A DNA stretch of 64,000 nucleotides from NCBI GenBank assembly GCA_964458035.1, contig CAYWFZ010000003.1, positions 8,297-72,296 of the forward strand. The letters are read 5' to 3'. Under the pieces are notes generated by a model. It had not been told where the DNA came from. It worked only from the letters and a program-made list of their open reading frames with translations, and did not search any database. Source of the stretch: an uncultured Muribaculaceae bacterium. GTDB lineage: Bacteria > Bacillota_I > Bacilli_A > RF39 > UBA660. Of this stretch, positions 1 through 43,387 are shown piece after piece (position 1 is the stretch's first letter; each line of letters begins with the position of its first letter). Made by a program: the position numbers and the translations under genes.

Positions 1-118
1 AAACACATGATAAAACTATAACTGCCGAGAATATATATTTAAAATATTTCATGTGCTTCACTCCTATAATAAAATTATAACAAAAAAAAAGGAAAATGTC
101 TTTAAAGAGAGACATTTT

Positions 119-661
119 CTATTCTTTGTCATATTTTAATACCATTACTAAATGATATACTTGATAAATAAATAATACTAATATAGGTAATATTACAAAT
201 ATCAAGAAACCGACAGTAGAAGTCAAGAAACCAACTACCTTACCCATTTTAGACACTGTTTTACTATGTAGGCCAAGTATTCGTTCACTTGGAATAGATA
301 CCTTCTCATTGCCTTCAAAATTATAAAGAGCAGATCTATTGTCACCAGATTTAGATTTTACTACACCAACTCTAACGATATATATATCATTCAAAGTATC
401 ATAGTAATATACTTCATCTCCCTCTTTTATATCATTAAATAAAGTATCTTTTACTATTACTAAATCACCTGACTTAAAATGAGTCAATTCAGCAGTGTTT
501 TCATCAGTCATAATTATAAGTGTATTTCCGGCAATTTCTGTGTATCCATATTTGTTTTTAAAAAACAAAACACTTACCATACAAACTGCAAACACGATAA
601 TAACACACTCTAAAAGACCTAATAGAAAGTTTAATACACTTTTCATATTATCACCATACAT
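119..661 (-). CDS. SipW-like (archaeal/ER-type S26B) signal peptidase paralog; catalytic Ser and His positions appear substituted, so possibly a pseudo-peptidase
   Basis: 180 aa with N- and C-terminal TM helices and motif spacing resembling the SipW-type peptidase at 8749-9894 (GDLVIVK and KSGDNR versus NDIIVVK and TRGDVN). The SGSM serine motif reads AGNT and HRV reads VRV. Confidence 0.45.
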   Translation of the reverse strand: MYGDNMKSVLNFLLGLLECVIIVFAVCMVSVLFFKNKYGYTEIAGNTLIIMTDENTAELTHFKSGDLVIVKDTLFNDIKEGDEVYYYDTLNDIYIVRVGVVKSKSGDNRSALYNFEGNEKVSIPSERILGLHSKTVSKMGKVVGFLTSTVGFLIFVILPILVLFIYQVYHLVMVLKYDKE

Positions 662-774
662 ACATTATAACATTTTATACAAGAAAATGACAACAAAAAA
701 TAAATATAAAAGGATATTTTTTATTTAACTAAGAACCTATAATGGTAAACTTTACAAAATATATATTAATTTTT

Positions 775-814
775 AAAGAAAAAAAGAATATCTAATAAAA
801 CATTAGATATTCTT
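775..814 (-). terminator. Rho-independent terminator of the giant surface-protein gene
   Basis: Perfect 11-13 bp inverted repeat AAGAATATCTA...TAGATATTCTT at 784-814, overlapping the stop codon and followed on the minus strand by a TTTTTCTTT run. Confidence 0.6.
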
Positions 815-3800
815 TATACATCTTTCCTAATAATAATGTACTTATAAACCTCATCGATTAGTTGATTATTATCATATAATTTAAATACAATTCTATAAGT
901 TCCACTTCTTAAATTATTCTTTAGTATATAATTTAAGTGAATATTTTCTGTTGGATTAGGCGAAATAATGTATTCAAAAGTTGAGCTAGGTCTATAAGGA
1001 GAGACAGGATAATTGAATGTATTAGTAAACAAATCTCTTGCATTATATTCAACATAATCTGTACTGTTAGGTCCAGTAGTGCTTCTCTTATAAATAGTAA
1101 ATCTTATATTTGGATTTTCTAGAACTGAAGCATATGTTATATCAAACTCTTCTTCATTTGTTCCTAAACTATTTAGCCCACTCTTACCATCAACTAATTG
1201 AATTCCATCATCGTTATTAACAATTATCATATTGTTACTTCCTACTACTACAATATCATATTCAGTTACTGAAGGCTCCTTATCACCACTATTATGAAGA
1301 CCATCATTTGATGCAAAAAGAGAAATTCGCATCTTATATGTTCCAACCGGAAGAGTATCTCCCGTTGTAAATACTATATTCTTACTTAGATTTGAAACTT
1401 TGTCTGCAAGCTTTATTCTAAACACTCCATTACTATCGACATAATAAGTCTGCCCATCCATCGAAATGGACGCACTAGATAACTGTGATGATGAAGTTTG
1501 TGTTCCATTAACATCAAAGAATTCAATATTCAACCCTAAACTGCTACTCTCATAATTGGTATCAACTATTGATTGTCTAAGTTCAGTTTGATCATAGCTA
1601 ATTCTTGTAGAGGTTGATATATCCTTAGGGGTATCATAATAGAAATAATTGTTATCAAATTTATAATTACCAACTAATACTTCATTACTTGAATCGTATA
1701 AACTATATTTCATTAAGGACCTTCTTTGTCCCCAAACATTAAAGATAGTTTCTTCTCTATCAATATGTTCTCTTAATTCAAATAATATTGTATTATTCAA
1801 ATAATTTCCAGTAATAGTAGTGTCTTGGAAGTCAAATATAAATATAAATTCTTCATTAATAAAATTAATGTTTTCATGATAATAAATTTCATTATTAGTT
1901 TTATCATCATACGTGTTATTTTTATCAATAGAGTCCATCCGTATAAACTTTGACAACCGGTAAGCCACTTCATTTTCTCGATTCAGTTCTGCAACTGCAC
2001 TATTATAATCAGCTTCATCAACTATATAATAGTAATAATTTGGATTCTCATCATTATAGCCGTAATCAATCATTGTTATCTTTGTTCCAACTGGAAGAGC
2101 ATAACTAGATACTAATGCATGATAATTAGTATGATCCTTGCCATAGAATTCTTCCATATTATTAGAATGGGCCAACAAGGCAAAATAAGCCGTAAACTGA
2201 CTTCTATTCGTAATATTAACATTAGTTGCAGCAGGTAAATCATATTTTTTAGAATATGTAATACTTGCGTCATATGCATCACCGTCAAGTATTTCGACAG
2301 AATTAATTGTTACTGTAATCGTAACTAACTTGGATTCATACTCAACTTCATCTTTCGGCACTAATGCCTGAAGAGAAATAACAACTGAACCAAATTTTAA
2401 ATCCGGAGAAATATTCTTAGCGTGATACAAATAAAACATCATATTAGGAGCAAGAGATTGATTATCAGTTCTGTATTGATCAGTTCCTGAATAACTACTT
2501 TTATCTTCTTTCATAAACTTTGTTGTTCCTTGGTTAGTCCACTCAATAGATTCTGACTTCATTGTTAATCCCAAAACTGTATCGGCCTCTTCTTGTGTAG
2601 ATGATAGTTTTGATACAAAGTTTGAATCTTTTAATTTTACTCCTTCAGTTAAACCATCTCCATTAAAACCAATAACATTGAATATTACATTTCCATCAGG
2701 GAAGTCTGGCATATTAAGAACAGCTGTACCTAATGAAGAATATCTAGCTGCAATTAGTTCAACTTCATACTTAATTGAAGGGGTTCCAATTTCCCACATA
2801 TAGAAGTTTGAATTTGGAGGTATTGGATCAATATAAGCAGTTGTAAGTACAGTAAAATCATCATCTATATAATTAGTATAAAATCCATCTACAGTTATAT
2901 CATGATTTATCGCATGTAATCCTCTGACATAAGAACCATCAGTAATGATATCTCCTGCAGTAGCTGGACTACCATAAGACATACTAGAATCATACATACC
3001 ATATACATAAGATCCATTTCCATATGTATTATACATACCAAAGAAAGTCATACCATAGACATTACCAGAAATTGCTACATCTTCATCTATTGCAACATTA
3101 AGATTAGATCCAGCTAGCATGTAAAGCCTATTATTAACATTATAAGTTACCTGTTTAGTATCATCATTAATATCTACTTTAGCTTTTACTTCTTCGCCAT
3201 TAATATCAACTAAACTGCTAAATTCTTGAAGCATATTAGCATTATTTCTAAGAAGTAAATCAGTATCATTTTTTATCTTTAATCTACCTATTCTATTAAA
3301 AGAATATTGTTTATTAGAAATATGGTTTGTACTATCTGTTATACCAATAAGTTCAATTGATGAATTATCTATAACTACTTCATCAGCCCTTTGAATAGAT
3401 ACCGATGTATTAGGATGCTGTCTTGTTCCTAATTTACCAATATAAATATTTGAAGGTCCACTTGAAGATGATGCATTACCAGAACCAAATATACTACCCG
3501 ATATCTTAAAGACATGATTATTTTCGTAACCAGCACCATTGATGTTTATATCAATTCCTTGGGTAACACTTATATGGTCAAAGTCAAATATCTCACTTCC
3601 ACCTTCATTAGCTTCACCACCACCGAAAACAGTTCCGCCAATTTGAATATCGCCAAGAGTAAGATTATTATTCGTTATAGCAGAGGCTCCAATATTTACT
3701 TTTGCGTAACCATATATTTCGGAAGTATTACATCCACCATAAACATTCTTTCCAATTGTTGCACCAGCTATATTAACTATTGAATTACTATTATCTGTTG

Positions 3801-8688: not shown

Positions 8689-8748
8689 ACTTCCACCTAT
8701 TATCATTCTAACACACTTTACTAATTAAAAAAAGAAGCAGCAAGCCTC

Positions 8749-9894
8749 TTATTTACTTTTTTTCAACATTGGTAATTCTAAATCATCAAGATTTTTAATA
8801 TCAGCATTTACCTTAATTCGTTTTTTTATTGCTTCTAGATCAAAATTAGATTCACAATTTAAATTTTTAACAGTACTTTCAATAGAAGTTATAATACCTC
8901 GAACATGATGATTATCATTAATAAATGCCTTGTCTTTATCTATTCTAACGCGATATTTTAAAACCTTTAATACAGCATCAAAGAACTCCACTTCATCATA
9001 CAATAGTGATCCTTCAAGCAATCTAAAGAACACATGAATTGGCATTTCATACAACTTATCTTGAATAGTCTTAGTAAATGAAATAGATTCAAAATCATAA
9101 TTATATAATTCATCAAAAGGAATATTATATAGAAGTTCTAAAACAGCGTCAGGGTCATAAAAATCCGTAACTACAAGAGTATATAAATATTGTAATTTTA
9201 AAGATCCATCTGTAGTAAGCTTTAATAATTTCTTTTTCGACTTTAACATACCTAAAACCAAATCGACAAATAGTTTCTCTTCGACATTCATTGGTTCAGT
9301 TTCTACTTTTTTTAATTTGTCCTCTAAAGCATCTTTTATTGATATAACAGATATAGCCTGAGTATACTCAAGAGGAGTTTCACATTTCTTAACTTTATGT
9401 TCTTTTTCTTTAGCAATATATTTTTTAAATATTTTATCAAAATTAACAAGTAGATAGACAATAACAATAAAAAGAACAATAGCTATTACCTTAAAAACTA
9501 GTGTCATTGGAACAATTAAAGAAACTCGTCCAATTATCGCATCTTTATTTACTGGTTCATCATCAATATTATTAACATCTCCCCTAGTAATAACTCTATC
9601 ATCATCTATACGAATAACTCGATGGGTAATAAAAGCATCATCACTCTTAAAAGTAATAATATCATCTACATTGTACTCATCATTTATTTTTACAACTATT
9701 ATATCATTTACTTCAATAGTACCAGACATACTACCACTAGCAACAATAAAATATGTATAACCAAATATATTTGCATAATCCTTATGCATAAATTTAGTAA
9801 TAACAACAGTATATAATGATAGAAAAACTAGTAAAGATAATATTAAATATATAAAATATTTAATCACCCTTTTTATTACTTTCATATTATCCAC
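8749..9894 (-). CDS. sipW: SipW-type (S26B) signal peptidase I with a ~230-aa C-terminal cytoplasmic extension
   Basis: Motifs SGSMSGTI, NDIIVVK, ITHRVI and TRGDVNN match the archaeal-type SipW catalytic core. An N-terminal TM and a second TM (VFKVIAIVLFIVIVYLLVNF) are followed by about 230 extra charged residues. Confidence 0.75.
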   Translation of the reverse strand: MDNMKVIKRVIKYFIYLILSLLVFLSLYTVVITKFMHKDYANIFGYTYFIVASGSMSGTIEVNDIIVVKINDEYNVDDIITFKSDDAFITHRVIRIDDDRVITRGDVNNIDDEPVNKDAIIGRVSLIVPMTLVFKVIAIVLFIVIVYLLVNFDKIFKKYIAKEKEHKVKKCETPLEYTQAISVISIKDALEDKLKKVETEPMNVEEKLFVDLVLGMLKSKKKLLKLTTDGSLKLQYLYTLVVTDFYDPDAVLELLYNIPFDELYNYDFESISFTKTIQDKLYEMPIHVFFRLLEGSLLYDEVEFFDAVLKVLKYRVRIDKDKAFINDNHHVRGIITSIESTVKNLNCESNFDLEAIKKRIKVNADIKNLDDLELPMLKKSK

Positions 9895-9951
9895 CTATTT
9901 TACTATTCATAGCAATTATAACATAAAACAACAAAAAAAGACTAGTATTTA

Positions 9952-11559
9952 CTAATCTTTATCTATTTTTTTAAAATCAATTATATATTTTATTTTCTCA
10001 ATTGATATATCGCTATTATTAATATTATTAACAAGATTAATAAAATCAATACTTTCTTCTAATCCAATAAGATTGTCTACTAGATCATCTTTACTTACAT
10101 TAATATTAAGTAATTTATACTTTTCAAATATAATATTATTTAAATCTTCATCACTTTGAAATTTGATTTTTGTAATAAAAGTATTATTAGGATTATTAAC
10201 AAAGTTGATTAATTTAAAATATTCCTTAGTATAATCTATATCTTTATCATCTAAGTCGATTTTTGGACACATCTTCTTAAAATAATCATAAAAAGAAGCA
10301 CAGACATATAATGCATCTCTTATAGTAGAAGTATCATCTAATCTTTTTAAAATAATATCATTAATTTTAGCTTCATCAAGTTCTCGATACAAGCCATCAA
10401 GTTTCTTTATTTGATCATTTAATTGAACTATAATTAAGTCTTTATTAACTTTCTTAGCAAATATAAATTTAGACTCACTTGCATATTGCTTAGCTAATTT
10501 AGCACGAACCTTTTCCTCTTGCCTAATTTCTTTTAGTTTAGCATCATACTGACCCTTATATGAATCTTTATTAGCATATCTTGATAAAACATCCTTAACT
10601 ATTCCTTTGTACTTATTATAATGATCTAATTCAACTACAACATCCTTTAATTCGCTAATTTCATCATAAAAATCTGACTTCTCTTTAGGAGATAAATCAT
10701 CAAATTCACGATCTATTAAGAATCTATTAAAGTTCTTGCGCACTTGAGGTGTATCCTCCAAATAATCATATATTGATAAAGTACCATCCAAGAATTTACT
10801 GCTAAGCAAGAAAATATCATTAATACGTTGCTTCTTTAGATCAGTAAGCATTGACTGATAGTACGATTTATAATTATCCTTATCTGTATTATTTTTCTTA
10901 AGTAACTCTTCATTACTTCTAATATAATAACTATCAAGTTCTTTTTTAAATTGCGAATATAAATTACGAATACATAATTTTAAATGAATTATAAAATTAG
11001 GACATTCCCAGTATATTTTATCAAATATATTTTTCATTGAATCCATAAAAGTATCCTTGTCTAAATTCGCAAAATATACTTCCATATACATATGCGTAAA
11101 CATAGAATAATTAAAATGTTCAGCTGTCAATTTTATTTCAGCACGATCAAACAAGTCAATAATCTTATCTATAAACTCGTTTACTCTTGTAAAATCTGAA
11201 ACATCAATATCATCGATATCATTAACTATATTATCAAAATTAAGTTTATTATATATATCATTAAATTCATTGTTATAGTCAAATATGATTCTATAATTTA
11301 ATATTCTATCCTTCAAATCAATATAATTAGCCGTTGAATCAGCTGGTATTAAAGCATTAACTCTAGATTCCATTTCATTATAAATTCTATCTCTTAAATC
11401 TTTGTATTTCTCTAGTTTTCCCTCAACAAAAGCATTTCTACTATTAACAGCATTAATATGAAATGTTTTCATCATTTTCTTTGTTCCAGTTGTAGACTCT
11501 AACTGAAACTCTTCAATATATTTCTTATCTTCCTCAAACTGAGTTAGGTATTGATTCAT
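9952..11559 (-). CDS. Hypothetical 535-aa K/D/E/N-rich, probably cytoplasmic protein
   Basis: Long ORF with no TM or signal sequence. Its ATG overlaps the stop of the upstream 46-aa ORF (ATGA). Confidence 0.6.
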   Translation of the reverse strand: MNQYLTQFEEDKKYIEEFQLESTTGTKKMMKTFHINAVNSRNAFVEGKLEKYKDLRDRIYNEMESRVNALIPADSTANYIDLKDRILNYRIIFDYNNEFNDIYNKLNFDNIVNDIDDIDVSDFTRVNEFIDKIIDLFDRAEIKLTAEHFNYSMFTHMYMEVYFANLDKDTFMDSMKNIFDKIYWECPNFIIHLKLCIRNLYSQFKKELDSYYIRSNEELLKKNNTDKDNYKSYYQSMLTDLKKQRINDIFLLSSKFLDGTLSIYDYLEDTPQVRKNFNRFLIDREFDDLSPKEKSDFYDEISELKDVVVELDHYNKYKGIVKDVLSRYANKDSYKGQYDAKLKEIRQEEKVRAKLAKQYASESKFIFAKKVNKDLIIVQLNDQIKKLDGLYRELDEAKINDIILKRLDDTSTIRDALYVCASFYDYFKKMCPKIDLDDKDIDYTKEYFKLINFVNNPNNTFITKIKFQSDEDLNNIIFEKYKLLNINVSKDDLVDNLIGLEESIDFINLVNNINNSDISIEKIKYIIDFKKIDKD

Positions 11560-11696
11560 TTTTCTTCCTCTTCTATAGTCAGAATACTATTATTAAGATA
11601 CTTAATATGTTCGTCTACTTTTCCATAGAATTCCATCAATTCATCATCTGTTAATTTACTTAAATTAAGAAGTGGGGTTTCAATTTTCTCTTCCAT
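11556..11696 (-). CDS. Small acidic protein (46 aa), translationally coupled to the 535-aa gene
   Basis: ATG at 11696 is preceded by AAGAGGT at 6-nt spacing. Its TGA overlaps the ATG of the downstream gene. Hand-translated (MEEKIETPLLNLSKLTDDELMEFYGKVDEHIKYLNNSILTIEEEEK); it is below the ORF-track length cutoff. Confidence 0.45.
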   Translation of the reverse strand: MEEKIETPLLNLSKLTDDELMEFYGKVDEHIKYLNNSILTIEEEEK

Positions 11697-11778
11697 ATTA
11701 ACCTCTTTCTAGAATTACATGCTAAATATATTATATCATAATTATTTTCATTTATTTCTATAATTTGACATATATTGT

Positions 11779-11801
11779 AAAAAAAAGGCTTTTAAAGCCT
11801 T
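11779..11801 (-). terminator. Rho-independent terminator after the 353-aa TasA-like gene
   Basis: AAGGCT/AGCCTT stem (palindrome ggcttttaaagcc) followed on the minus strand by a run of about 6-8 T. Confidence 0.55.
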
Positions 11802-11819
11802 TATACTATATCATCTATT

Positions 11820-12881
11820 CTATGGTGTATCAGTTGCACCAGACTTACTATTTGAACTAAATTGTAAGTCAAAGTTTATTTGTCCACCAGCTGCGAAGTT
11901 TTCACAGTCAACATCTTGACCTTCAACCCACATATAGATTCTTATCTTAGTAATTCCTTTTTTCAAATCTATAAATTCTTGATAAGCAGCTGCAGGAATA
12001 CCAGATTCTGGAGTAGCAATATAGTTAGTTGGAGCAGCAGTAGGAGCATCCTTTGTTACTTCTTGGAAATAAGCATTATCAGTACTATTTAAAGCAACTG
12101 CAGTAGTAATTGGAGCTTTAAGTCCATAATATCCAAGTCTTGCAGCGCCATTTAAACTAGTAGTCTTTCCATAAAGAGCTGCATTTGTTATACCAGTAGG
12201 TGTATGAACATCATAATTTGGTTCCCAGAAAATTGGTGTAGCACCAGCATTTGCTAAATTTTGAATAGTACCTGTTGCACTACCAGCAGCAACGTTACCT
12301 TCATCAATGAATGCAAGTCTTGCAGCTCTTTGAATACCAGTATCTGCATCTCCGTCTCCACCTTTAACTGAAGCCTTATCTGTTAAATAGATTTTAGTAT
12401 CTTCTTGAACTTGGAAGAATAAGTCAAATGCTATAAAATGTCCATCTTGTGATTTTGTTTCAGTTGATTTAGAAGCAGTTAATTCATATGCACCAGATGT
12501 TTCATTAACTACAACTTCACCTAAGTACATATCCATTTCTCCACTTGTTGATAGCTTTCCAACAGTTGATACAGGAGCTAATCTACCAGTAGAACTAGGC
12601 AATTGGTTCTTGTTTCCTGGGTATACTGTATTAGTACCAGTAATTGTATCTACTATATCTTGATTAGTTACTATAGCTTTCCAATTGACTCCATCAACTG
12701 ATATTTGTAGACCATTTGCAGCAGCAACATTAACATTAATTGTACTTACTGTAACAGTTTTATTTGCAGTAAACCATGCATAAGATGTTGTAGCTAGTAA
12801 ACCACCAGTTAAAAGAAGCATCAAAACAGCTAATAACAATTTTCTTTGCTTTTTTCTACGTTTAACTTTATTTTGTTTCAT
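11820..12881 (-). CDS. TasA/camelysin-like secreted protein with a SipW-cognate-type signal peptide
   Basis: N-terminal basic region and hydrophobic core, then TTSYAWFTANK, matching the (G)GT[FW]A[YA]F[SN]D motif of TasA/CalY. The C-terminal IYMWVEGQDVDCENFAAGGQINFDLQF is shared with two neighbouring paralogs. Confidence 0.65.
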   Translation of the reverse strand: MKQNKVKRRKKQRKLLLAVLMLLLTGGLLATTSYAWFTANKTVTVSTINVNVAAANGLQISVDGVNWKAIVTNQDIVDTITGTNTVYPGNKNQLPSSTGRLAPVSTVGKLSTSGEMDMYLGEVVVNETSGAYELTASKSTETKSQDGHFIAFDLFFQVQEDTKIYLTDKASVKGGDGDADTGIQRAARLAFIDEGNVAAGSATGTIQNLANAGATPIFWEPNYDVHTPTGITNAALYGKTTSLNGAARLGYYGLKAPITTAVALNSTDNAYFQEVTKDAPTAAPTNYIATPESGIPAAAYQEFIDLKKGITKIRIYMWVEGQDVDCENFAAGGQINFDLQFSSNSKSGATDTP

Positions 12882-12897
12882 TATATTTCTCTCCTTT

Positions 12898-13602
12898 TTA
12901 TTTTCTTACTAATCTTTCTTCAGTTATATCCATATGCATCTTAATGCCTCCACCTATCAAGTCATTATTACACTCTGGATCGTCACCTTCAATCCAAATT
13001 ACTACAGTAAAATGGTCTTTATCTCCTGGTAAAAATTCTTTACGTTCCTCAAGTACAGCTATATCAGTAGAATAAAATTTAACCGTATCTTTTTCTGCCT
13101 CACCTGTTCTACTACTTGGTTTAGCATAAATAGTCTTTTCGCCATTATGATATATCATAACTCTTATTGATTCATCAAGATTTCGAATTGTATCATCAAT
13201 ATCAATTTCATACCAATAATTGATTGGATTTTCACCTGCATGAACTAAATAAAAGCTATAAGCAACATAATTAGTACCATTATGGGCACCATCTGCCTCA
13301 GTATCAATGTCTTCATTTATCCATTTAACTGAGATATTATCCATGTATTCAGCAGCACTTGCAGACAAACTCCTACTCTTGTTTTCTAAAGATCCATCTT
13401 CCGTTAAAAATATACTACTTTTTAGCATATCTTTATCAACCGATATCGAAAAATTACTAGTATTGTACACTACATACAATACCGAATACGATACAGAAAA
13501 CAACAATAGTAAAAGCAGTAATATAACTTTCGAAATTCTTGAAAATAACTTTTTTCTATGAATTTTATCCGCAGTTGTAGAAACACTATAATCTCTTTTC
13601 AT
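12898..13602 (-). CDS. TasA/camelysin-like paralog (234 aa) with N-terminal signal anchor
   Basis: C-terminus VIWIEGDDPECNNDLIGGGIKMHMDI aligns with the C-terminus of the 353-aa protein. N-terminal hydrophobic segment. Confidence 0.55.
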   Translation of the reverse strand: MKRDYSVSTTADKIHRKKLFSRISKVILLLLLLLFSVSYSVLYVVYNTSNFSISVDKDMLKSSIFLTEDGSLENKSRSLSASAAEYMDNISVKWINEDIDTEADGAHNGTNYVAYSFYLVHAGENPINYWYEIDIDDTIRNLDESIRVMIYHNGEKTIYAKPSSRTGEAEKDTVKFYSTDIAVLEERKEFLPGDKDHFTVVIWIEGDDPECNNDLIGGGIKMHMDITEERLVRK

Positions 13603-13806
13603 GTAATCACCATCTTTTTTATTGTTTTACTAGGGGGACAATAGTATCTACACTACCACTATCATAATTATATTTTAGTCCCTAATTAATATCAACAATA
13701 TTTGTCAATAAATGTCGAACTATACACACTATGTTTACACAAAAACAATACATCAAGAAGAATAGTACGTTTGACTAATAATTGAACCCATGATAATATA
13801 ATAATA

Positions 13807-14403
13807 GTGATACTTATGAATACTAAAAATATACTAAGAATAGGACTTATTATTGTTGCTATTTTTCTTGCTAGTTTTTTATTGCAAGACACATTTGCAA
13901 AGTATAGAAAAAGAGTAAATAATAACGTTGATATAAACCTTGCCAATTGGAATATCTTACTTAACGGAGAAAGTATAGCTGGTAAAGATACAATATCGAG
14001 TAAAATAATTCCGGTATTTGAAAAAAACGACTATATTGCAGAAAACGTTTTAGCACCTGGAGTAAAAGGATACTACGATATCGAAATAAACGCCAGTGAA
14101 GTTGATACATCTTTTTCTTATGTTTTTACAACCAAAGTAAGTGATGAAGAAAAATATCCTGATATTATCGCTTTTGGATATACAATAGATCCAGATAACA
14201 ATTCTGAAATAATTGAGTATACTGGTGGAAGTATAACTGGTTCTATAGTTCACAATACACCATCCACTAAAATAAGAATTTATATTGAGTGGGACGATTC
14301 AGAAACAAATAAAATGACAAATGCAGAAGATACTGCCCTTGCCATTAATAATAATGAACTAACGATGAATGCCGAATTCAAATTTGAACAAATTAAGGAA
14401 TAA
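13807..14403 (+). CDS. Small secreted protein, possible third TasA-like paralog (198 aa)
   Basis: Signal peptide followed by QDTFAKY (TasA-like cleavage motif). The C-terminal IYIEWDDSETNK...NAEFKFEQI resembles the conserved C-terminal motif of the two upstream paralogs. Divergently transcribed. Confidence 0.5.
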   Translation: MILMNTKNILRIGLIIVAIFLASFLLQDTFAKYRKRVNNNVDINLANWNILLNGESIAGKDTISSKIIPVFEKNDYIAENVLAPGVKGYYDIEINASEVDTSFSYVFTTKVSDEEKYPDIIAFGYTIDPDNNSEIIEYTGGSITGSIVHNTPSTKIRIYIEWDDSETNKMTNAEDTALAINNNELTMNAEFKFEQIKE

Positions 14404-16762: not shown

Positions 16763-17548
16763 CTAATCCTTATAATACTCATTTGTAAGATAGACAAATT
16801 CTTCATAGGATAAGTCTTCTGCACGATTATCCAAAGATTTATCAACTATTTTTAAAATATTTTCAACTTTCTCTAAATCGTAGTTTTTTAAATTATTTCT
16901 TAAGTTCTTACGTTTAAACTTAAAAGAATCTCTAACAAATCTATTAAATAATTTTATATCTGTATCTAACAATTTTTCACGTCTAGTAAATTTAATAACC
17001 GCACTATCAACATTTGGAACTGGATAAAATTTATTTCTGTTAACAACAAATAGATTTTGAACATTGAAATAATAATTTAAAAACACAGTAATTGAACCAT
17101 ACTCTCTTGTTTTTGGTACAGATGAAAACCTTAAAGCAACTTCCTTTTGTACCATAAATACCATCTCATCAGCTTGTATAGAATCATCAATTATCTTTGT
17201 AATAATTGGCGTGGTTATATAATATGGAAGATTGCCAATTATATATAATTTATCATAACTAATATCTTTTATATCATCAGATATATTTCTTTTTAAGAAG
17301 TCATCAAATATAATTTGTACTCGATCATTTTCTAAAGCTTTTAAGTTACTAATTAACTCTGTATCAATTTCATAAGCTAAGACATAAGCCCCCGTTGAAA
17401 CAAGTTGTTTTGTTAATGCCCCTGCTCCTGGACCAATTTCTATTACTAAATCAGACGGACTCGCATTAATTGATGAAACTATATTATGAATTACATTTTT
17501 ATCTTGTAAAAAGTTTTGTCCAAACTTCTTTTTAAAATTAAATTTCAT
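16763..17548 (-). CDS. rsmA: 16S rRNA (adenine1518/1519-N6) dimethyltransferase
   Basis: FGQNFLQD, EIGPGAGALT and the KsgA/Dim1 family layout. Adjacent to yabE-like and tatD as in Bacillus. Confidence 0.93.
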   Translation of the reverse strand: MKFNFKKKFGQNFLQDKNVIHNIVSSINASPSDLVIEIGPGAGALTKQLVSTGAYVLAYEIDTELISNLKALENDRVQIIFDDFLKRNISDDIKDISYDKLYIIGNLPYYITTPIITKIIDDSIQADEMVFMVQKEVALRFSSVPKTREYGSITVFLNYYFNVQNLFVVNRNKFYPVPNVDSAVIKFTRREKLLDTDIKLFNRFVRDSFKFKRKNLRNNLKNYDLEKVENILKIVDKSLDNRAEDLSYEEFVYLTNEYYKD

Positions 17549-17585
17549 TTCATCACTTCCAATAAAACAATTTTATCACATAAGG

Positions 17586-17613
17586 TTGTGTATTAAAAGT
17601 ATTGTGATATAAT
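17586..17613 (+). promoter_or_regulatory. Promoter with extended -10 (TTGTGT-16-TGATATAAT)
   Basis: -10 TATAAT at 17608-17613 with TG at 17605-17606. -35 like TTGTGT. Confidence 0.5.
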
Positions 17614-17631
17614 TATAAAAGGATGATGTCT

Positions 17632-18474
17632 ATGAATATTAATTATTTAAAAATAGAAGAAGAATTAAATAGTTACGCCATTGAAGCAATATATGACATA
17701 ATGGAAAAATGCGGAAAATTCATGACACAAGAAGAATTTGAAGCATACGAAAAAGGAATTTTAGAAAATAAAGTCATAATTGTAAACAGACCTAGTGTAG
17801 ATGACGATAAATTCTTCAAGGGTAATGTCCCTGTTGCTCATGGTCCAAGAACAAAAAAGGATGGCTATGTTCATGTCTATCCATATAGATATAAAAATCA
17901 AAACACCGACCAAATTATAGATAACTATATAAACGGATCAATAATATTACATGAACTATATCATTATATAATAAGACTAGATATAAAAAATTCTAATGAA
18001 AAAACACGAATAAGATTTGGACACTATATCACAGAAGGTATGGTTGAGTTATTCACAGAACTTCACAATAAACAAAAAGCAACAAGATGGTCTGCAAGAA
18101 GGAATGTTGATGCAGCTGAAAAAATATACAATATACTTTTGGACAAAAGTGATATAAAACTAATTTTTCAGTGTAACATTGAAGAAATTTTTTCAAAATA
18201 CCCAGAACTTGAAATAATATATGAAGACTATTTAAAAGAATGTAAATTCGTTGAAGGATTAACAAATATACTTGAATCCTTAAGAGAACACGCATCAATA
18301 GATACAAAAAGAATTATAGCAAGATTCAATAGGTATTCTCTATTAGAAGGTATTGAAAACATTAAACTTGAATCAGAAAATTTTCTTGATGAAGTTGATG
18401 CTAATTATTTTAATAAACAAATTGATGAATTATATACAAGTATTTATGAAGACAAAGAAAAAAGACTTAGTTAA
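17632..18474 (+). CDS. Putative zinc metallopeptidase (HExxH: ILHELYHYI)
   Basis: The ORF track starts at 17623. The ATG at 17632 has a better-spaced AAAGGA RBS. Single HELYH motif; otherwise unrecognised. Confidence 0.5.
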   Translation: MNINYLKIEEELNSYAIEAIYDIMEKCGKFMTQEEFEAYEKGILENKVIIVNRPSVDDDKFFKGNVPVAHGPRTKKDGYVHVYPYRYKNQNTDQIIDNYINGSIILHELYHYIIRLDIKNSNEKTRIRFGHYITEGMVELFTELHNKQKATRWSARRNVDAAEKIYNILLDKSDIKLIFQCNIEEIFSKYPELEIIYEDYLKECKFVEGLTNILESLREHASIDTKRIIARFNRYSLLEGIENIKLESENFLDEVDANYFNKQIDELYTSIYEDKEKRLS

Positions 18475-33710: not shown

Positions 33711-36167
33711 CTATTCCGCATTTTCTTCTTCAACTATATCTAACGATTCATCAACCTTATCAACCACACTTATAGTAGATACAAATTGATTTTCTTTTAA
33801 ATTAATTAGCTTAACTCCTTGAGTAACACGTCCTAATTGAGAAATTTGTTCAATAGGTAACCTAATAAGCATTCCAGACTCTGTTATAATCATTAAATCA
33901 GAATCATTGTTAACAACTTTATGTGCAACCAATGCTCCATTTTTTTCAGTAATACTTAAGGCTTTTACACCTTTACTACCTCGCTTAGTCATTCTATACT
34001 CATTTACAAAAGTTTTCTTACCATATCCGTTCTTAGTAACAACTAAAATATTATCCTCTGGTTTTCCAACTTCCATACCTGTACAATAACCATCACCATC
34101 TAAGTTAATTCCTCTAACACCTGAAGCAGTTCTTCCCATAGGTCTTATTTCATTCTCATCAAACACAACCATACGTCCAGATGTACTAGCTAATATTATC
34201 TTAGAAGCTCCATCAGTTAACTTAACATCAAGTAGTTCATCATTTTCTCTCAAACTAATTGCGATTTTTCCGCTTGCTCTAATATTTTCAAATTCATCAA
34301 CCAAAGTACGTTTAACTATTCCATTTTTAGTTGCAAATGTTAAATATTTACCAGCAGACTCCTTATTATATGAAACAATTGAATTAATTTTCTCATCTTT
34401 TTCAATTTGAAGTAAATTAATTACAGGTAATCCCTTAGCTTGTCTAGAATATTCAGGAATTTCATAACCCTTTATCCTATATACTTTACCTTTATTTGTA
34501 AAGAAAGTTACATAATCATGCGTAGAACAATTAATTAAATGTTTAACATAATCTTCTTCATTTGTAGACATCCCCTTAACTCCAACTCCACCTCTATGTT
34601 GAGATTTAAAAGTATCAGATACACATCTCTTAATATATCCTTTATCAGTAAGGCTTATTATTATATTTTCTTCAGGAATTAATGATTCATCATCAATAAA
34701 GTCGACAGCTGTCATATCTATATATGTACGTCTCTCATCACCATATTTTTCCTTAATTTCAAGTAATTCTTCTTTAATAATGTTTAAAACTAATTGATCA
34801 TCAGCTAATATTGCCTTATATTCTTCTATTTTCTTTAATAATTCATCCAATTCAGCAAGAATCTTATCTTTTTCAAGAGCAGTAAGTCTTCTTAAACGCA
34901 TCTCAAGTATTGCTTCAGTTTGAATATCAGTTAGTCCAAATCTATCCATTAATGTTTGTTTTGCTTGTTCATCACTTCGAGAATTTCTAATTATTTGAAC
35001 AACATCATCAATATTTTCAAGAGCAATCTTATAACCATTTAAAATATGAACTCTCTCTTCAGCTTTCCCTAAATCAAATTTAGTACGCCTAATAATTATT
35101 TCCTTTTGATATTCGATATATTTAGAAATAATTTCCTTAAGTCCCATTGTTCTTGGTTTTTGTTGATCTAACATAAGTAAATTAATACTGAAATTAGTTT
35201 GTAAAGCTGTTTGTTTATATAAATTATTTAAAACTACATTAGCATTAGCTTCTTTTTTAAGAGTAATTACAATTTTTACACCATTTTCAAGGTTTGTTTC
35301 TTCATGTAAATCAGCTATACCATCAAGTAATTTATCACGAACTAACTCAGCTATACGTTGTTGAAAAAGTTTCTTATTAACTTGGTAAGGTAATTCAGTA
35401 ATAACAATCAATTGATGACCATTATGTTCTTCAATTGCAACTTTACCACGTATTGTTATTGTTCCTTTACCTGTTTCATAAGCTCTTCTAATACCTGAAT
35501 TACCTAATATTACAGCTCCAGTAGGAAAGTCTGGTCCTTTTACATATTCCATTAATTCTTCAGTAGTTATATCATGATTGTCGATATAAGCAACACATCC
35601 ATCAATAGTTTCTCCTAAATTATGAGGAGGAATATTAGTTGCCATACCTACGGCTATTCCCACAGTACCATTTACTAGTATATTAGGGAATCTACAAGGA
35701 AGAACAGTTGGTTCAGTTGTTGTGTCATCAAAGTTTGGTACAAAATCTACTGTGTCTTTCTTAATATCTCTTAATAATTCTAAAGATAATTTTGAAAGTC
35801 TTGCTTCTGTATAACGCATTGCAGCTGCGCCATCACCATCCATAGAACCAAAATTACCATGTCCTTCAATCAAAACATTTCTAATTGAGAAAGGTTGTGC
35901 TAAACGAACCATAGCATCGTAAATTGAAGAATCTCCATGAGGGTGATAATTACCCATAACCTCTCCAACCGTTTTAGCACACTTTCTAAAAGGTTTATCA
36001 GATGTGTAGCCATTCTCATACATAGAATATAGAATTCGTCTGTGAACGGGCTTTAAACCATCTCTAAGGTCAGGTAGAGCACGTGCAACTATTACACTCA
36101 TTGAATAATCAAGAAAAGATTCCTTAATTTCTTCAACTATATTTCTTTTTACAATATTTCCATCCAT
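33711..36167 (-). CDS. gyrA: DNA gyrase subunit A
   Basis: [16 protein letters not shown], active-site region and C-terminal beta-pinwheel, 818 aa. Confidence 0.97.
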
Positions 36168-36183
36168 AACTCATACCCTCCTA

Positions 36184-39187
<3,004 letters not shown>

Positions 39188-39287
39188 TTTAACCCCCTTA
39201 ATTTCAATTTTAAGTGATTTTTTACTAATAAGGTACACCTATACCACATATTAATTATATCACAGTTTAGATATATAAAAAAGAAAT

Positions 39288-39746
39288 TTATGCTCCATAG
39301 CTCCTTTTTTTCTTTAAAAAATGATCTAGTTTCATTGATTTAAATAATTGGTTATTAATTATATTCAAACTAATAGATAATTCTACAAAAACCCCATTAT
39401 TAAAAGTAATTACTGTAACATTCTTTAGGGCATTATAATAAACCTTATCAACATTCATCATATTTATCCAAGAAACTGTCTTTAATCTTGGAGAGGACGT
39501 TGGAAAAAAGATTAATCTATTAGAACCACTTATAATTATTGGAGTTTTATATTTTGATCCAGTAATAATTTCTGAACTTTTTAACCTTCCCATAAAAGTA
39601 CTTCCATATCTCAAACAATTTCTCTTAATAATATTATTTGGACTATCATTTACAACAAACATATCTTTATCATCATAAACCAAAGAAGTATTATTTCCAC
39701 AAGGCAATATCGCTAATGTTTTTTTGCGTATTATATATTTATCCAT
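39288..39746 (-). CDS. comK: ComK-family competence transcription factor homolog
   Basis: Aligns by eye with B. subtilis ComK. CLRYGSTFMGRLK matches CRFFGSSYAGRK. KTPIIISGSNRLIFFPTSSP matches KPPIMVDPSNQIFLFPTLSS. VSWINMMNV matches CGWISHVHV. TFNNGVFVELSIS matches TFSNGKTMELPIS. Confidence 0.7.
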   Translation of the reverse strand: MDKYIIRKKTLAILPCGNNTSLVYDDKDMFVVNDSPNNIIKRNCLRYGSTFMGRLKSSEIITGSKYKTPIIISGSNRLIFFPTSSPRLKTVSWINMMNVDKVYYNALKNVTVITFNNGVFVELSISLNIINNQLFKSMKLDHFLKKKRSYGA

Positions 39747-39834
39747 AATTCACCTCCGTTCTTGAGGTCATACACTAGCATAAGAAAACTAAAAAAAAAG
39801 TCGAAAAAAAAGGAATACTTCTAAGAATTCCCTT

Positions 39835-40956
39835 TTAATAAGTTTTTATTGGTAAAACTAGTTGAATTAATGACTCATCAGAGGCTGATTTTATAATAAT
39901 TGGTTTAGAATCACTATTCATACAAATAATTATATCTTCATCTTCAATACTTCTTAAGGCATCCATCATATATTTAGCACTAAATGATATAGATATATCT
40001 TCATTAACATTTCTTTGAACATTTATCCTATTTTCAGCTTTTCCTATTTCTGATGCAAAGGAACTAATAATTAATTCATTTCCAATAGCTTCCATTTTTA
40101 CAATATTCTTTTCTTTACTTTGTGTAAGTAATGATGCTCCATCTATTGATGAAAAGTAATCATTTAACTTAGTAGATATAATATATGCAAACTCAGCAGG
40201 AATGAAATTTGAAGTATTAGGATAACTACCATTTAAAAGATTAGATTGAAATTTAATACCCTCATATTTAAACATTATTTTATTCTCAAATATGTGAATT
40301 TCAACAGTTTTATCATCTTCTGTAATAATTTTATCTAATTCATTAATATTTTTACCTGGAATTACAATATCAACTGCATCATCATAAGGTGTATCTAAAT
40401 TGATTGTCTTCTTTGCTAGTCTATATGAATCAGTTGCAACACATTCTAATATGTTTCCATTTATTTTAATATTAATACCTGTTAATAATGGTCTTGATTC
40501 TTGAGTTGAGACAGCAAATATAGTTTGTTTAATCATTTTCTTTAATATACCTGACTTTAATTCAATATGATGAGTATTGTCATTTAACTCTATTTGTGGA
40601 TAATCAACACTATTTAAACAATTTAAATTATATTGACTAGTTTCAGTATAAATTAATATTTTTAGACTATCTATAACTTCAAAATTTACTACATCACTAG
40701 GAAGCTTCTTTATTATTTCTAGAATATATTTACTCTGAATAATAATCTCTCCTACTTCTTCAATTTTTTCAATTTTATCTTCTGGTATAAAAGATTTAAT
40801 AGTTAAATCAGAATCACTAGCTGTTAAATATAAGCCTTCTTTAGTTAACTCAAATTTAACTCCGTTTAATATAGGTATAATATTTCTAGTCGAAATAGCT
40901 TTACTAACATTTGTTAGTTGTTCTAATATAATATTCTTCTTAATTGAAAATTTCAT
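39835..40956 (-). CDS. dnaN: DNA polymerase III beta sliding clamp
   Basis: 373 aa with three-domain clamp layout, immediately downstream of dnaA. Confidence 0.94.
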   Translation of the reverse strand: MKFSIKKNIILEQLTNVSKAISTRNIIPILNGVKFELTKEGLYLTASDSDLTIKSFIPEDKIEKIEEVGEIIIQSKYILEIIKKLPSDVVNFEVIDSLKILIYTETSQYNLNCLNSVDYPQIELNDNTHHIELKSGILKKMIKQTIFAVSTQESRPLLTGINIKINGNILECVATDSYRLAKKTINLDTPYDDAVDIVIPGKNINELDKIITEDDKTVEIHIFENKIMFKYEGIKFQSNLLNGSYPNTSNFIPAEFAYIISTKLNDYFSSIDGASLLTQSKEKNIVKMEAIGNELIISSFASEIGKAENRINVQRNVNEDISISFSAKYMMDALRSIEDEDIIICMNSDSKPIIIKSASDESLIQLVLPIKTY

Positions 40957-41107
40957 AAAAAATTCCTTCTTTCTTTTTTTATTTATTATTATATTGATAT
41001 TATTATTAGGGTTGAAAAAGTTGAAAACTCAATCGAACCTTTATTTTATGTAGTTTTTAGTTAAAACTTATTATTTATATTTGTTAACAAGTCCTAAGTT
41101 TTTAACA
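40957..41107. other. oriC: dnaA-dnaN intergenic origin segment (AT-rich, candidate DNA unwinding element) with 2 copies of GTTGAAAA
   Basis: gggTTGAAAAAGTTGAAAACtc at about 41010-41031, flanked by more than 85 percent AT sequence. Canonical Firmicute bipartite oriC position. Confidence 0.5.
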
Positions 41108-42469
41108 TTAATTTGAAATTTTTACTTTAATCTCTTTAATTTCATCTTTTAATTCTTCATTCTTTTTATATTCTTCATCAATCTTATCACAAGCATGTAT
41201 TACTGTAGCATGATCTCTGTTAAATTCTAAACCAATTCTCTCAATTGTTTCTTCGGTCGTCATCTTACAAAGATACATCGCAACTTGCCTAGCTTTATTA
41301 ATATTAGCTGTCCTTTTCTTACTTTTCAGATTTTCAACAGTTAAATCATAGAACTCAGCAACTGCTTTTTGAATTTTTGCTATATTATTTGTTATATATA
41401 GAGAATTTCCAATATAATCTTTCAAGTTTTCTTGAGCAAATTCTAAATTAATCTCTTTAGGAGAATACATTGCTGTTACTGCATAAAGTCGATTGATTGT
41501 TCCCTCAAGATGCCGAACATCGCTTTCACAGTTGTTTGCTATAAACTCTAAAACTTCTGGCTTTATAAGTGAGGATACTTCCGTTCCAGCAATTTTATTC
41601 TTTATTATTTTTAACCTTAGTTCGTAATCTGGAGGAGTAATATTAACAGTAATTCCCCAATTAAATCGTGTTTTTAATCGATCTTCTAATACTTTCAAAT
41701 CATCAGGTGATCTATCACTACTAATTATGATTTGTTTTTGTCCCTGATGTAGGAAGTTAAAAGTATTAAAGAACTCATCTTGCGTTTTAGCAGCACCGCC
41801 TAGGAATTGAATATCATCAATTATTAATACGTCCACATTCCTATATTTATCTTTAAATTTTTGCTCTAATTCGTACTTTTCTTCATCTTTTTTATATAAA
41901 TTAGTGAAATCCGATATAAAAGTATCACTTGTAACATACAAAACAGATTTATTTGAGTTTTCTTTAATATAATTTCCAATCGCGTGCATTAAATGCGTTT
42001 TACCAAGACCACTTTTTCCATATATAAATAAAGGATTATAAACTTTTCCGGGTTGTTCTGCAACAGATAAACCAACCATAGCAGCAAATCTATTAGTCTC
42101 CCCTATTACAAAGTTATCAAACGTATAATTTGGATTTAAATTTGAATTATCTTCTTTAAACTTTGGTAAATCCACAGCTTCTTCAATAACGACTTTTTCA
42201 CTATTTTCAGAATATCTATTTAAGTCTTCCTCTATGACTACCTCAAAAGAATATGAAATATCAGAACACTGTTCAATAGTCTCCTCTAAGAGGTCTGTAT
42301 AATGTTCTTTTATAAAATCCCTTGAATAAGAATTAGAAACTTTAATTATCAAGGTTGAATCATCAATTTTTACTAATTCTGAGTCATTAAACCATATATT
42401 AAAAGAAACACTACTAGTATGTGATTTTAAATAATCTAAACATTTATTCCATAACTCTTCTCTGTCCAT
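41108..42469 (-). CDS. dnaA: Chromosomal replication initiator DnaA
   Basis: AAA+ Walker A GKSGLGKTHL, box VII, and C-terminal HTH (...RQVAMYLCK...DHATVIHA). The ORF-track start at 42478 is a GTG. The ATG at 42469 (MDREELWNKCL) is preceded by AGGGTGG. Confidence 0.96.
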   Translation of the reverse strand: MDREELWNKCLDYLKSHTSSVSFNIWFNDSELVKIDDSTLIIKVSNSYSRDFIKEHYTDLLEETIEQCSDISYSFEVVIEEDLNRYSENSEKVVIEEAVDLPKFKEDNSNLNPNYTFDNFVIGETNRFAAMVGLSVAEQPGKVYNPLFIYGKSGLGKTHLMHAIGNYIKENSNKSVLYVTSDTFISDFTNLYKKDEEKYELEQKFKDKYRNVDVLIIDDIQFLGGAAKTQDEFFNTFNFLHQGQKQIIISSDRSPDDLKVLEDRLKTRFNWGITVNITPPDYELRLKIIKNKIAGTEVSSLIKPEVLEFIANNCESDVRHLEGTINRLYAVTAMYSPKEINLEFAQENLKDYIGNSLYITNNIAKIQKAVAEFYDLTVENLKSKKRTANINKARQVAMYLCKMTTEETIERIGLEFNRDHATVIHACDKIDEEYKKNEELKDEIKEIKVKISN

Positions 42470-42478
42470 AATAACCAC

Positions 42479-42892
42479 CCTGTTGATCTATGATGCCATA
42501 GTTTCATTAACTACTTAAATTTTATAACTTTTTAGTTGAAAAAGTAAAGAGTAATATTATAATTTTAGTTATTACCACAATTTTCAACAAAGTTTTCAAC
42601 TCTTAATGTACTATAATATAGTATTTTGTCGTACTTTTCAACCTTTTCAACAAATTAATAAAAAAAGTTTTCATTTATAGTGAAAAGTTTTAAGATATAA
42701 ACGTTGAAATAGTTGAAAAGCCAAATTAAGCTGTTGAAAACGTTAAAGTTATGAACAAAGATTAAAAAAACATAGTTTTCTTTAAATATCCTTAATTTTA
42801 TTGACTTAATCAATTTAATATAATATAATAACCTTGCTTTGAGATTGCATCAGTTTATTAATCTGAGCAAAAAGAACCGGAGGTGGACATTT
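42479..42892. other. oriC: Candidate oriC: dnaA-rpmH intergenic region with 8 copies of the octamer TTTTCAAC/GTTGAAAA in both orientations (about 42534-42745), then an AT-rich stretch and the rpmH promoter
   Basis: Copies occur as ttaGTTGAAAAag, aaTTTTCAACAaagTTTTCAACtc, acTTTTCAACcTTTTCAACAaa, acGTTGAAATAGTTGAAAAGcc and ctGTTGAAAACg. I found no TTATCCACA. Position is between the divergent dnaA and rpmH-rnpA genes. Confidence 0.6.
42801..42829 (+). promoter_or_regulatory. rpmH promoter (TTGACT-17-TATAAT)
   Basis: -35 TTGACT at 42801-42806 and -10 TATAAT at 42824-42829, 63 nt upstream of the rpmH ATG. Confidence 0.6.
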
Positions 42893-43015
42893 ATGAAAAG
42901 AACTTATCAACCAAATAATCGTAAGAAAGCAAAAAAACATGGTTTCTTTGCACGTAAAAATACAAAAATTCTAAAAACTAGAAGAGCAAAAGGACGCAAA
43001 GTGCTATGCAAATAA
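42893..43015 (+). CDS. rpmH: 50S ribosomal protein L34
   Basis: Hand-translated [40 protein letters not shown], with GGAGGTGG RBS. Below the ORF-track cutoff. Confidence 0.9.
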
Positions 43016-43058
43016 AGCCACAAAGTGGCTTTTTCTTATATAAGTAGGAGGTATTTTA

Positions 43059-43379: not shown

Positions 43380-43387
43380 GTGAAGAT

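Follow-up and report, generated by a model that had tools for sequence, protein, structure and literature searches.

A SipW-like gene of low-GC gut bacteria and its C-terminal extension

A 64,000-nucleotide stretch of contig CAYWFZ010000003.1 (here called the window) carries, near its left end, a gene for an extended SipW-like signal peptidase, which is referred to as SipWx. The original prediction described the open reading frame (ORF) at 8749..9894 as a SipW-type catalytic core and a second transmembrane segment (TM2) followed by about 230 more residues, as against a canonical SipW of about 190 amino acids (aa). This description stands: the ORF is intact on the minus strand, all of the quoted motifs and both transmembrane (TM) segments are present, and the yardstick agrees with Bacillus subtilis SipW, which is a 21-kDa protein of ~190 aa (PMC8767453). 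Read from its GTG codon, the ORF encodes 381 aa, and residue numbers refer to this frame throughout. The GTG sits within a Shine-Dalgarno-like AGGTGG, an ATG follows 9 nucleotides (nt) downstream at 9885, close homologs are 378 aa long, and the aligned homologs start with an equivalent MK(V/I)IK, so the product is probably 378 aa. The gene and the segments of its product are as follows.

8749..9885, minus strand: SipWx gene, 378 aa from the probable ATG start; the ORF from GTG reaches 9894
9796..9864, minus strand: predicted first TM segment (TM1, about residues 11 to 33), N terminus inside, from hydropathy, four Lys or Arg residues in the first 12, and a helix at residues 2 to 35 in the AlphaFold2 (AF2) model
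9523..9795, minus strand: predicted extracytoplasmic catalytic domain (residues 34 to 124), from a SipW model match, the SEC11A alignment, Foldseek, and the invariant Ser55, His91, and Asp106
9445..9522, minus strand: predicted TM2 (about residues 125 to 150), running from outside to inside; the strongest hydrophobic segment (Kyte-Doolittle value, 3.19), with a helix at residues 130 to 150 in the AF2 model
9298..9444, minus strand: basic juxtamembrane helix (NFDKIFKKYI) and variable acidic linker with the motif P174...T178, here ETPLEYTQAISV
8785..9297, minus strand: predicted all-alpha globular C-domain (about residues 200 to 370), from the AF2 model and invariant residues, with no database match

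SipWx is a real gene, and the fusion is genuine and conserved. At least 278 database proteins match SipWx at an E value of ≤1e-3, with identities of 33 to 99%, and among the 120 matches listed, most span 93 to 99% of SipWx as a single ORF of 370 to 420 aa. A relative is encoded in 179 stretches found in a scan of one genome per species, in low-GC gut "Bacilli/Mollicutes" metagenome-assembled genomes (MAGs). Of these, 79 loci were fetched, and counts given below as x of 79 refer to them; the neighborhoods of the relatives were viewed within 10 kb. The 79 loci were recovered in MAGs from the guts of humans, goats, sheep, rabbits, yak, and deer, and the MAGs of the relatives are labeled Bacilli, Mollicutes, Tenericutes, Erysipelotrichaceae, "Mycoplasma sp. 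CAG:877," and others, which we take to correspond to the GTDB order RF39; these bacteria presumably have small, reduced genomes. The MAGs of the close relatives at L001, L030, L033, L069, and L077 are labeled Muribaculaceae (Bacteroidota), and these labels are probably wrong, as the gene content and the layout of the origin in the window resemble those of low-GC Bacillota. The SipWx family is limited to one group of low-GC gut bacteria, uncultured but widespread, that occurs in humans, ruminants, rabbits, and other animals.

That the extension is a separate gene joined to the peptidase by a sequencing or assembly error, or else a domain lying outside the cell, is extremely unlikely. A few entries with the C-domain alone or with odd N termini (P0121, P0122, P0125, P0127, and P0130) might be taken as a sign of such an error, but most of the short entries appear to be chimeras or fragments that arose at the ends of contigs. 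A frameshift or misassembly is ruled out by the conservation of one continuous ORF in hundreds of relatives, from independent assemblies and many hosts, and the junction between TM2 and the juxtamembrane segment NFDKIFKKYI is itself conserved.

The peptidase core

SipWx contains the motifs ASGSMSG (Ser55), THRV (His91), and TRGDVNN (Asp106), and these three residues are invariant across 34 aligned homologs, together with G54, M56, T90, R92, G105, and N108. In B. subtilis SipW, the counterparts of Ser55, His91, and Asp106 are Ser47, His87, and Asp106, all of which are essential (PMC8767453). The NCBIfam SipW model NF046067 matches residues 11 to 124 with an E value of 5.9e-13 and 48.8 bits versus a curated cutoff of 190, and the scores of the other models are also under their cutoffs (TIGR02227, 29 versus 47; Pfam S24, 22.8 versus 23.3; Pfam S26, 18.8 versus 22.9). 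A significant E value with scores below the cutoffs marks SipWx as a divergent member rather than a Bacillus SipW equivalog.

A profile built from the 34 family members and searched against solved structures matches human SEC11A (7P2P; E value, 2.3e-6) and SEC11C, at positions 47 to 133 only. The SGSM, HRV, and GD.N boxes of the family profile are in register with those of SEC11A, in which VHRV lies opposite THRV. The full-length AF2 model of SipWx has a predicted local distance difference test (pLDDT) score of 76, with values of only 52 to 55 around residues 41 to 60. In a Foldseek search, this model matches only the S24/S26 clan (the LexA C-domain, Streptococcus pyogenes SipA, UmuD, lambda repressor, and SpsB), with a probability of 1.00 for LexA, SipA, and most of the other clan matches, all of which span the N-terminal 87 to 145 columns; for the compact LexA C-domain, SipA, and UmuD chains, the target-normalized template modeling (TM) score versus the SipWx model is 0.49 to 0.63. 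SipWx thus combines a catalytic Ser, a His where P-type enzymes have lysine, an Asp in the GD.N box, and the beta-barrel fold of S24/S26, along with a predicted SipW-like topology in which N- and C-terminal anchors flank a catalytic domain outside the membrane. On these sequence features, SipWx is classified as an endoplasmic reticulum (ER)/archaeal-type (MEROPS S26B, SipW/SEC11-like) type I signal peptidase, as a divergent member and not as a "SipW" in the strict sense. We infer both its peptidase activity and its substrates.

Anatomy of the extension

The SipWx extension has four parts: the basic juxtamembrane helix, the acidic linker, a nine-helix domain, and a short tail. The juxtamembrane segment NFDKIFKKYI opens a stretch with eight Lys or Arg residues in the 20 positions after TM2, in which F152 and K158 are invariant and N151 is nearly so. 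In the linker, P174 and T178 are invariant (here ETPLEYTQAISV; elsewhere LP.E.F...SSGLTVTI) and are accompanied by an acidic, IEVLE-like stretch. The length of the linker is highly variable, being short in SipWx and reaching ~250 Pro/Thr/Val-rich repeat residues between TM2 and the domain in P0126, and the AF2 pLDDT is low across linker residues 162 to 198.

The C-domain (~175 residues), modeled with AF2 on its own alignment, is predicted with a pLDDT of 87.2 and a predicted TM score (pTM) of 0.86 as a globular fold of nine helices. Its ten invariant residues are F260, E262, Y266, Y299, F305, D306, K310, K313, Y314, and F351. The first three lie in a nonhelical acidic-aromatic loop, PF.E.YDYD.E, and the next six lie in the helix motif LY....FD..(Y/F/L)K(I/V)(L/M)KY. 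The alignment of the domain contains no conserved His, Cys, or Ser, and therefore nothing points to catalysis by the C-domain. In P0005 and P0006 (572 aa), the domain occurs twice in tandem, together with a zinc ribbon.

The extension had been described as charged and helical, and a domain search of it had been proposed. Pfam, run on the window protein and 25 family members, gave no recurrent match to the C-domain and only scattered weak ones. The C-domain profile has no match among all PDB sequences at an E value of ≤10; with Foldseek, the best E value is 1.1 against PDB, where the query-normalized TM score (TMq) is at most 0.34, and 0.7 against BFVD. A profile search of 1.84 billion representative proteins returned 45 matches, and those examined are family members or apparent fragments. 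The C-domain, as modeled, is a folded and conserved domain that occurs in this family only.

Topology of the extension

Only two segments of SipWx exceed 1.6 in the Kyte-Doolittle 19-residue mean, at about residues 6 to 37 and 119 to 157, and windows starting from residue 160 onward peak at 0.87. Net charge, averaged over 108 two-TM relatives, follows a positive-inside pattern, with +2.9 at the N terminus, −2.1 over the 15 positions that precede TM2, and +2.4 over the 20 that follow it. A CPxC...CPxC zinc ribbon is present at the C terminus, after the domain, in 10 of 120 relatives (P0005 and P0006, with P0008, P0009, P0011, P0013, P0014, P0018, P0019, and P0020 included). P0136 has one N-terminal TM segment followed by KTIKAKK and the C-domain, and the same charge rule puts the domain inside. 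Twelve of the 120 relatives have a third segment above the hydropathy threshold. Its probable source is the hydrophobic core helix MPIYVFLRIL..., to which the model gives only 13 residues, with an Arg among them.

A signal peptidase must have its catalytic domain on the outer side, and no segment of SipWx is more hydrophobic than TM2, which should place what follows TM2 inside; the charge bias, the zinc ribbons, the single-TM variant, and the lack of a further hydrophobic segment lead to the same side. We infer from these sequence patterns that the C-terminal extension of SipWx faces the cytoplasm, as the original prediction had proposed from SipW topology. The linker of P0126 is the one feature that would favor the artifact explanation in its other form, a domain outside the cell, to which nothing in the sequence evidence for SipWx points; the charge bias, zinc ribbons, and single-TM variant speak against it.

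The operon and its products

SipWx lies in a gene cluster in which the order p234, p353, p46, p535, SipWx, giant protein, g180 recurs in ~65 of the 79 loci, with p198 either divergent or downstream. The features of the cluster in the window are as follows.

13807..14403, plus strand: p198, divergent small secreted protein with a signal ending LLQDTFAKYRK; homologs in 21 of 79 loci
13667..13695, minus strand: promoter-like site with 11 of 12 matches, upstream of p234
12898..13602, minus strand: p234, which opens the cluster and is its best-conserved gene
11820..12881, minus strand: p353, probable major secreted subunit, with a SipW-type signal (a basic n-region and then TSYAWFTANKTVTV)
11784..11802, minus strand: terminator-like hairpin right after p353
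11556..11696, minus strand: p46, small acidic helix protein, whose stop codon overlaps the p535 start by 4 nt
9952..11559, minus strand: p535, conserved 535-aa protein just upstream of SipWx; in 67 of 79 loci
8732..8750, minus strand: terminator-like hairpin at the SipWx stop codon
814..8706, minus strand: giant surface protein of 2,630 aa, just downstream of SipWx; conserved in 67 of 79 loci
119..661, minus strand: g180, SipW-like paralog (TM, beta domain, TM) and last gene; in 60 of 79 loci
92..119, minus strand: terminator-like hairpin after g180

The p353 family provides candidates for the cognate substrates expected beside a SipW-type peptidase, namely, proteins with signal peptides of the SipW-dependent type. 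These proteins have a long basic n-region, the near-invariant TSTYAWFTANKTVTV, and a conserved TSTYAWFTAN motif, and 17 of 31 family members match the cognate SipW signal peptide model TIGR04088 (best E value, 1.1e-4), the window p353 itself being subthreshold (E value, 0.071; 13.3 bits versus 19). The giant protein has GG.N-type repeats and an N-terminal TM segment or signal that ends PNTFSSFATIENVW (the end of this membrane segment is also given as TFSSFATIENVW), its relatives are 2,600 to 3,070 aa long, and it has no Pfam domain; it is probably a surface adhesin. Its N terminus shows a subthreshold similarity to the TapA signal region (E value, 0.025), and p198 shows a weak, likewise subthreshold similarity to the N terminus of TapA (E value, 0.14). 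p234 consists of a conserved basic N-terminal tail of ~25 aa, one TM segment, and an outside domain ending IWIEGDDPEC...GG.IKMHMDITEE. TasA, TapA, and camelysin were considered as identities for these neighbors and set aside, as there is no significant family match: p353, p234, and p198 do not match Pfam, including the TasA/camelysin family Peptidase_M73, and the p353 profile retrieves no TasA structure from the PDB sequences. The term "TasA-like" could be applied to the SipWx neighbors only by analogy, on signal type and operon logic.

p535 has neither a hydrophobic segment nor a signal peptide, and no relative of known function was found for it in Pfam, NCBIfam, or PDB. p46 has no signal peptide or known relative and consists of a core, L..EELLELY.KI.EHIKYLN.SII, and an acidic tail. 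Of 58 loci examined, most have an equivalent small ORF ahead of p535, with a few of the recovered ORFs being unrelated basic peptides, and p46 and p535 are conserved as a pair. The last gene, g180, is homologous to the peptidase domain of SipWx (hhalign probability, 88%; E value, 3e-6; 121 columns), and its hidden Markov model matches genuine short SipWs. In the g180 family, neither Ser nor His is conserved where the catalytic residues would lie, and g180, by homology combined with catalytic-residue loss, belongs with the inactive signal-peptidase-like proteins. The strong promoter-like site and the hairpins suggest high expression of p234 and p353 with read-through into the rest of the cluster, and the hairpins point to p234-p353, p46-p535-SipWx, the giant protein gene, and g180 as possible separate transcription units.

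The window is chromosomal, with ~27% GC and genetic code 11. In the origin region at 33711..44317, dnaA, dnaN, recF, gyrB, and gyrA are encoded on the minus strand, and the plus strand carries rnpA and yidC; the switch in gene orientation and GC skew falls near 42 to 43 kb of the window, and the SipWx operon lies ~30 kb from the origin. Two complete clusters, at L024 and L058, come from the same MAG, and L062 has two SipWx copies (9382..10632 and 16793..18022) in the order SipWx, p234, p353, p535, second SipWx, giant protein.

SipWx could instead be the general housekeeping peptidase of the lineage, with the C-domain as an accessory that serves, for example, in docking to the translocon or ribosome or in membrane localization. 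SipWx is found away from the operon in five loci: L041 adjoins IMP dehydrogenase-like and glycosyltransferase genes, L070 is isolated, L054 and L055 have only g180 alongside, and L034 is the fifth. SipWx may thus have additional substrates or work as a general peptidase, and the 64-kb window yielded no further signal peptidase. However, SipWx is embedded in the same operon in ~65 of the 79 loci, and the presence of two clusters or two copies in one MAG argues for dedicated paralogs; a housekeeping role is distinctly unlikely.

Short, split, and alternative forms

Short-SipW relatives and variants in which the C-domain lacks a peptidase or stands alone serve as natural controls. In L076, L078, L079, L081, and L083, from Clostridia and other Bacillota, the peptidase domains of short SipWs are 39 to 46% identical to that of SipWx. 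Unlike SipWx, these proteins have 160 to 192 aa and end a few basic residues after TM2, and no C-domain is encoded within 10 kb of their genes, so that they present the system in its unextended state. Their loci share with SipWx neighbors homologous to p353, p234, p198, and g180 and sometimes p535 and the giant protein. As g180 accompanies a short active SipW in Clostridia (L078 and L079), the pair of an active and an inactive peptidase appears to be old.

In L084, a 198-aa protein (333..929, plus strand) with a single TM segment and the C-domain but no peptidase occupies the usual SipWx site directly upstream of the giant-adhesin gene. In L085 (133..738, plus strand) and L086 (86..691, plus strand), a 201-aa stand-alone C-domain with in-frame stops upstream is followed by two 510-aa proteins with SYAYFTA signals. 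These cases call for caution, since L084 consists of just one 1.3-kb contig and in L085 and L086 the genes lie near contig ends. Because the split forms still adjoin structural genes, the C-domain appears to be tied to the system rather than to catalysis.

L077, from an unrelated lineage, provides an independent case of a large cytoplasmic addition: it encodes a 644-aa SipW (10004..11938, plus strand) with a cytoplasmic extension of ~480 aa that is unrelated to the C-domain, and a p535-like gene and g180 are nearby. This extension has no Pfam match; an EAL-like domain, suspected by eye, received no support from Pfam. The alternative extension indicates that SipW C termini may be a recurrent site for the addition of cytoplasmic functions.

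The search for a partner of the C-domain

The original prediction had suggested that the fusion couples substrate processing to the adjacent 535-aa and 46-aa proteins, i.e., that the C-domain binds p535 and/or p46. The two genes lie immediately upstream on the same strand, with overlapping stop and start codons between them, and p535 is near SipWx, usually just upstream, in 67 of the 79 loci. Neither protein has a signal peptide or TM segment, which would put both in the compartment predicted for the C-domain. L077, with its different extension, has a p535 relative, and the short-SipW loci L078 and L079 have none within 10 kb.

Relatives of both proteins nevertheless occur with a canonical short SipW. 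The order in L081 is p46-like, p535-like, giant protein, and a 190-aa SipW that has SM, HRV, and GDNN, and L082 matches this order until its contig ends; in L080, the p46 and p535 relatives adjoin the giant adhesin with no SipW in view. Conversely, SipWx has no p535 within 10 kb in five loci. As judged from gene content, the p46-p535 pair tracks the giant adhesin gene and not the C-domain. An exploratory mirror-tree analysis of 44 nonredundant loci gives the C-domain and p535 a partial Mantel r of −0.02 (not significant), compared with 0.46 for p535 and g180 and 0.36 for p535 and the giant protein, and profile-profile comparison shows no relation between the C-domain and p535. The coevolution test proposed for the 535-aa neighbor thus gave no support, and the coupling to p535 and p46, which none of these findings favors over other partners, is unlikely.

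The C-domain covaries most with p234 (r, 0.51), through the outside domain and TM segment of p234 and not through its cytoplasmic tail, and this covariation is treated as a shared lineage-specific change of rate and not as contact. Other proposals were rejected as well. The basic N-terminal tail of p234 was considered as a target specific to the C-domain, and similar tails exist with short SipW; a relation of the C-domain to p535 through helical repeats has an hhalign probability of 0.2%; and an "ETPL" motif common to the linker and p46 is not conserved in the p46 relatives.

Comparison with known systems

The peptidase of the SipW system is encoded in an operon with its own substrates, whose special signal peptides have aromatic residues after the cleavage site. 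The C terminus of B. subtilis SipW is cytoplasmic and has a second, nonproteolytic function (PMC8767453 and PMC10269814), in which its last 20 residues activate matrix genes on surfaces independently of peptidase activity (PMC8767453). B. subtilis SipW thus resembles SipWx as a Ser-His-Asp peptidase with N- and C-terminal anchors, an operon shared with substrates, and a cytoplasmic C terminus. The tail of B. subtilis SipW, however, has ~20 residues, while SipWx has ~230 after TM2, with a folded domain of 175 residues and no sequence relation. Only the location (cytoplasmic, after TM2) is common to the two, and a 20-residue tail is too short for a sequence relation. The SipWx operon also differs in having the giant adhesin, p535, p46, and the inactive paralog.

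The second role of the B. subtilis tail (PMC8767453) is a precedent for a different reading of the C-domain, in which it is a regulatory or signaling device that reports secretion or surface contact to gene expression, e.g., by holding and releasing a regulator. The zinc ribbon added in some relatives would fit such a role, and the unrelated ~480-aa extension of L077 suggests that cytoplasmic functions have been recruited more than once. Factors that sequester regulators are commonly built as all-helical domains tethered to the membrane. However, the operon and its flanks hold no conserved transcription factor in the loci examined, and the C-domain resembles neither the B. subtilis tail nor any known sensor or anti-sigma family. 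The variants that lack a peptidase or stand alone adjoin structural genes, which a structural or export role fits at least as well. The regulatory reading is fairly unlikely.

In eukaryotes, the catalytic subunit works with noncatalytic membrane subunits that have cytosolic parts. SEC11A and SEC11C (7P2P and 7P2Q) are the closest solved relatives of SipWx by sequence profile, and a peptidase with a cytoplasmic domain and an inactive paralog loosely recalls the SEC11 complex, as an architectural analogy only. SEC11, unlike SipWx, has a single TM segment and no C-terminal cytoplasmic domain, and no homology of the C-domain or g180 to the accessory subunits of the signal peptidase complex (SPC) was detected.

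S. pyogenes SipA (PDB 4N31) is an inactive signal-peptidase-like protein that is essential for pilus polymerization. g180 resembles SipA in having a signal-peptidase fold without catalytic residues and in its place in a surface-fiber operon, and 4N31 is among the top structural matches of the SipWx peptidase domain, with a weak sequence match. The two differ in that SipA belongs to the P-type (LepB-like) branch, acts with sortases, and has no cytoplasmic domain, while g180 belongs to the SipW branch and the SipWx cluster contains no sortase. A literature search turned up no account of an extended SipW or of this operon. The enzyme is ordinary; the orphan cytoplasmic domain and the surrounding operon are not, and the extension has no counterpart in B. 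subtilis SipW, SEC11, or the short SipWs.

A proposed dedicated peptidase with a predicted cytoplasmic domain

The explanation that we favor, with moderate confidence, is that SipWx is a SipW-type peptidase dedicated to the secreted fiber and adhesin proteins of its operon and that the C-domain is a membrane-tethered interaction module for some partner. TM1 would lie in the membrane with the N terminus inside, the catalytic domain would be outside, and TM2 would return the chain to the cytoplasm, where the basic juxtamembrane helix and acidic linker would lead to the nine-helix domain of ~175 residues. Gene order and signal type suggest that SipWx acts as the dedicated peptidase of an operon of seven to eight genes; it would cleave the SipW-type signal peptides of the fiber-like p353 and probably also the signals of p198 and the 2,630-aa adhesin. 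The C-domain may tie the peptidase, or the export and assembly functions of the operon, to a cytoplasmic or membrane-embedded partner and, by analogy, may be an enlarged version of the nonproteolytic second role of the 20-residue tail of B. subtilis SipW.

Several points weigh against this explanation. The covariation tests on the 44 loci produced no physically sensible partner of the C-domain, and "interaction module" is the default reading of a helical domain that has no obvious catalytic residues and no match of known function. SipWx scores below the curated cutoffs of every signal-peptidase model, its topology follows from sequence rules, the Pro/Thr-rich linker of P0126 is of a kind more usual outside cells, and five loci hold SipWx away from the operon.

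A more ambitious proposal, and something of a long shot, is that the operon encodes a multisubunit signal-peptidase and export complex, SPC-like in architecture, composed of SipWx as a SEC11-like catalytic subunit, the ancient inactive g180, and cytoplasmic components (the C-domain and perhaps p535 and p46), with the cytoplasmic components docking the peptidase onto the translocon or ribosome. If so, the adhesin of 2,600 to 3,000 residues and the fiber subunits would be processed cotranslationally, and the C-domain would found a new class of signal-peptidase adaptors in the cytoplasm.

To our knowledge, type I signal peptidases are almost always minimal enzymes with their active part outside the membrane. 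A conserved, folded cytoplasmic domain on such an enzyme would mean that cleavage is wired to something inside the cell, and the one precedent for this, the 20-residue tail of B. subtilis SipW, is poorly understood. The C-domain, which is absent from Pfam and has no match among solved structures, is a well-defined target for structure and interaction studies. As SipWx lies in what appears to be the main surface-fiber and giant-adhesin operon, it bears on the attachment of these bacteria in the gut.

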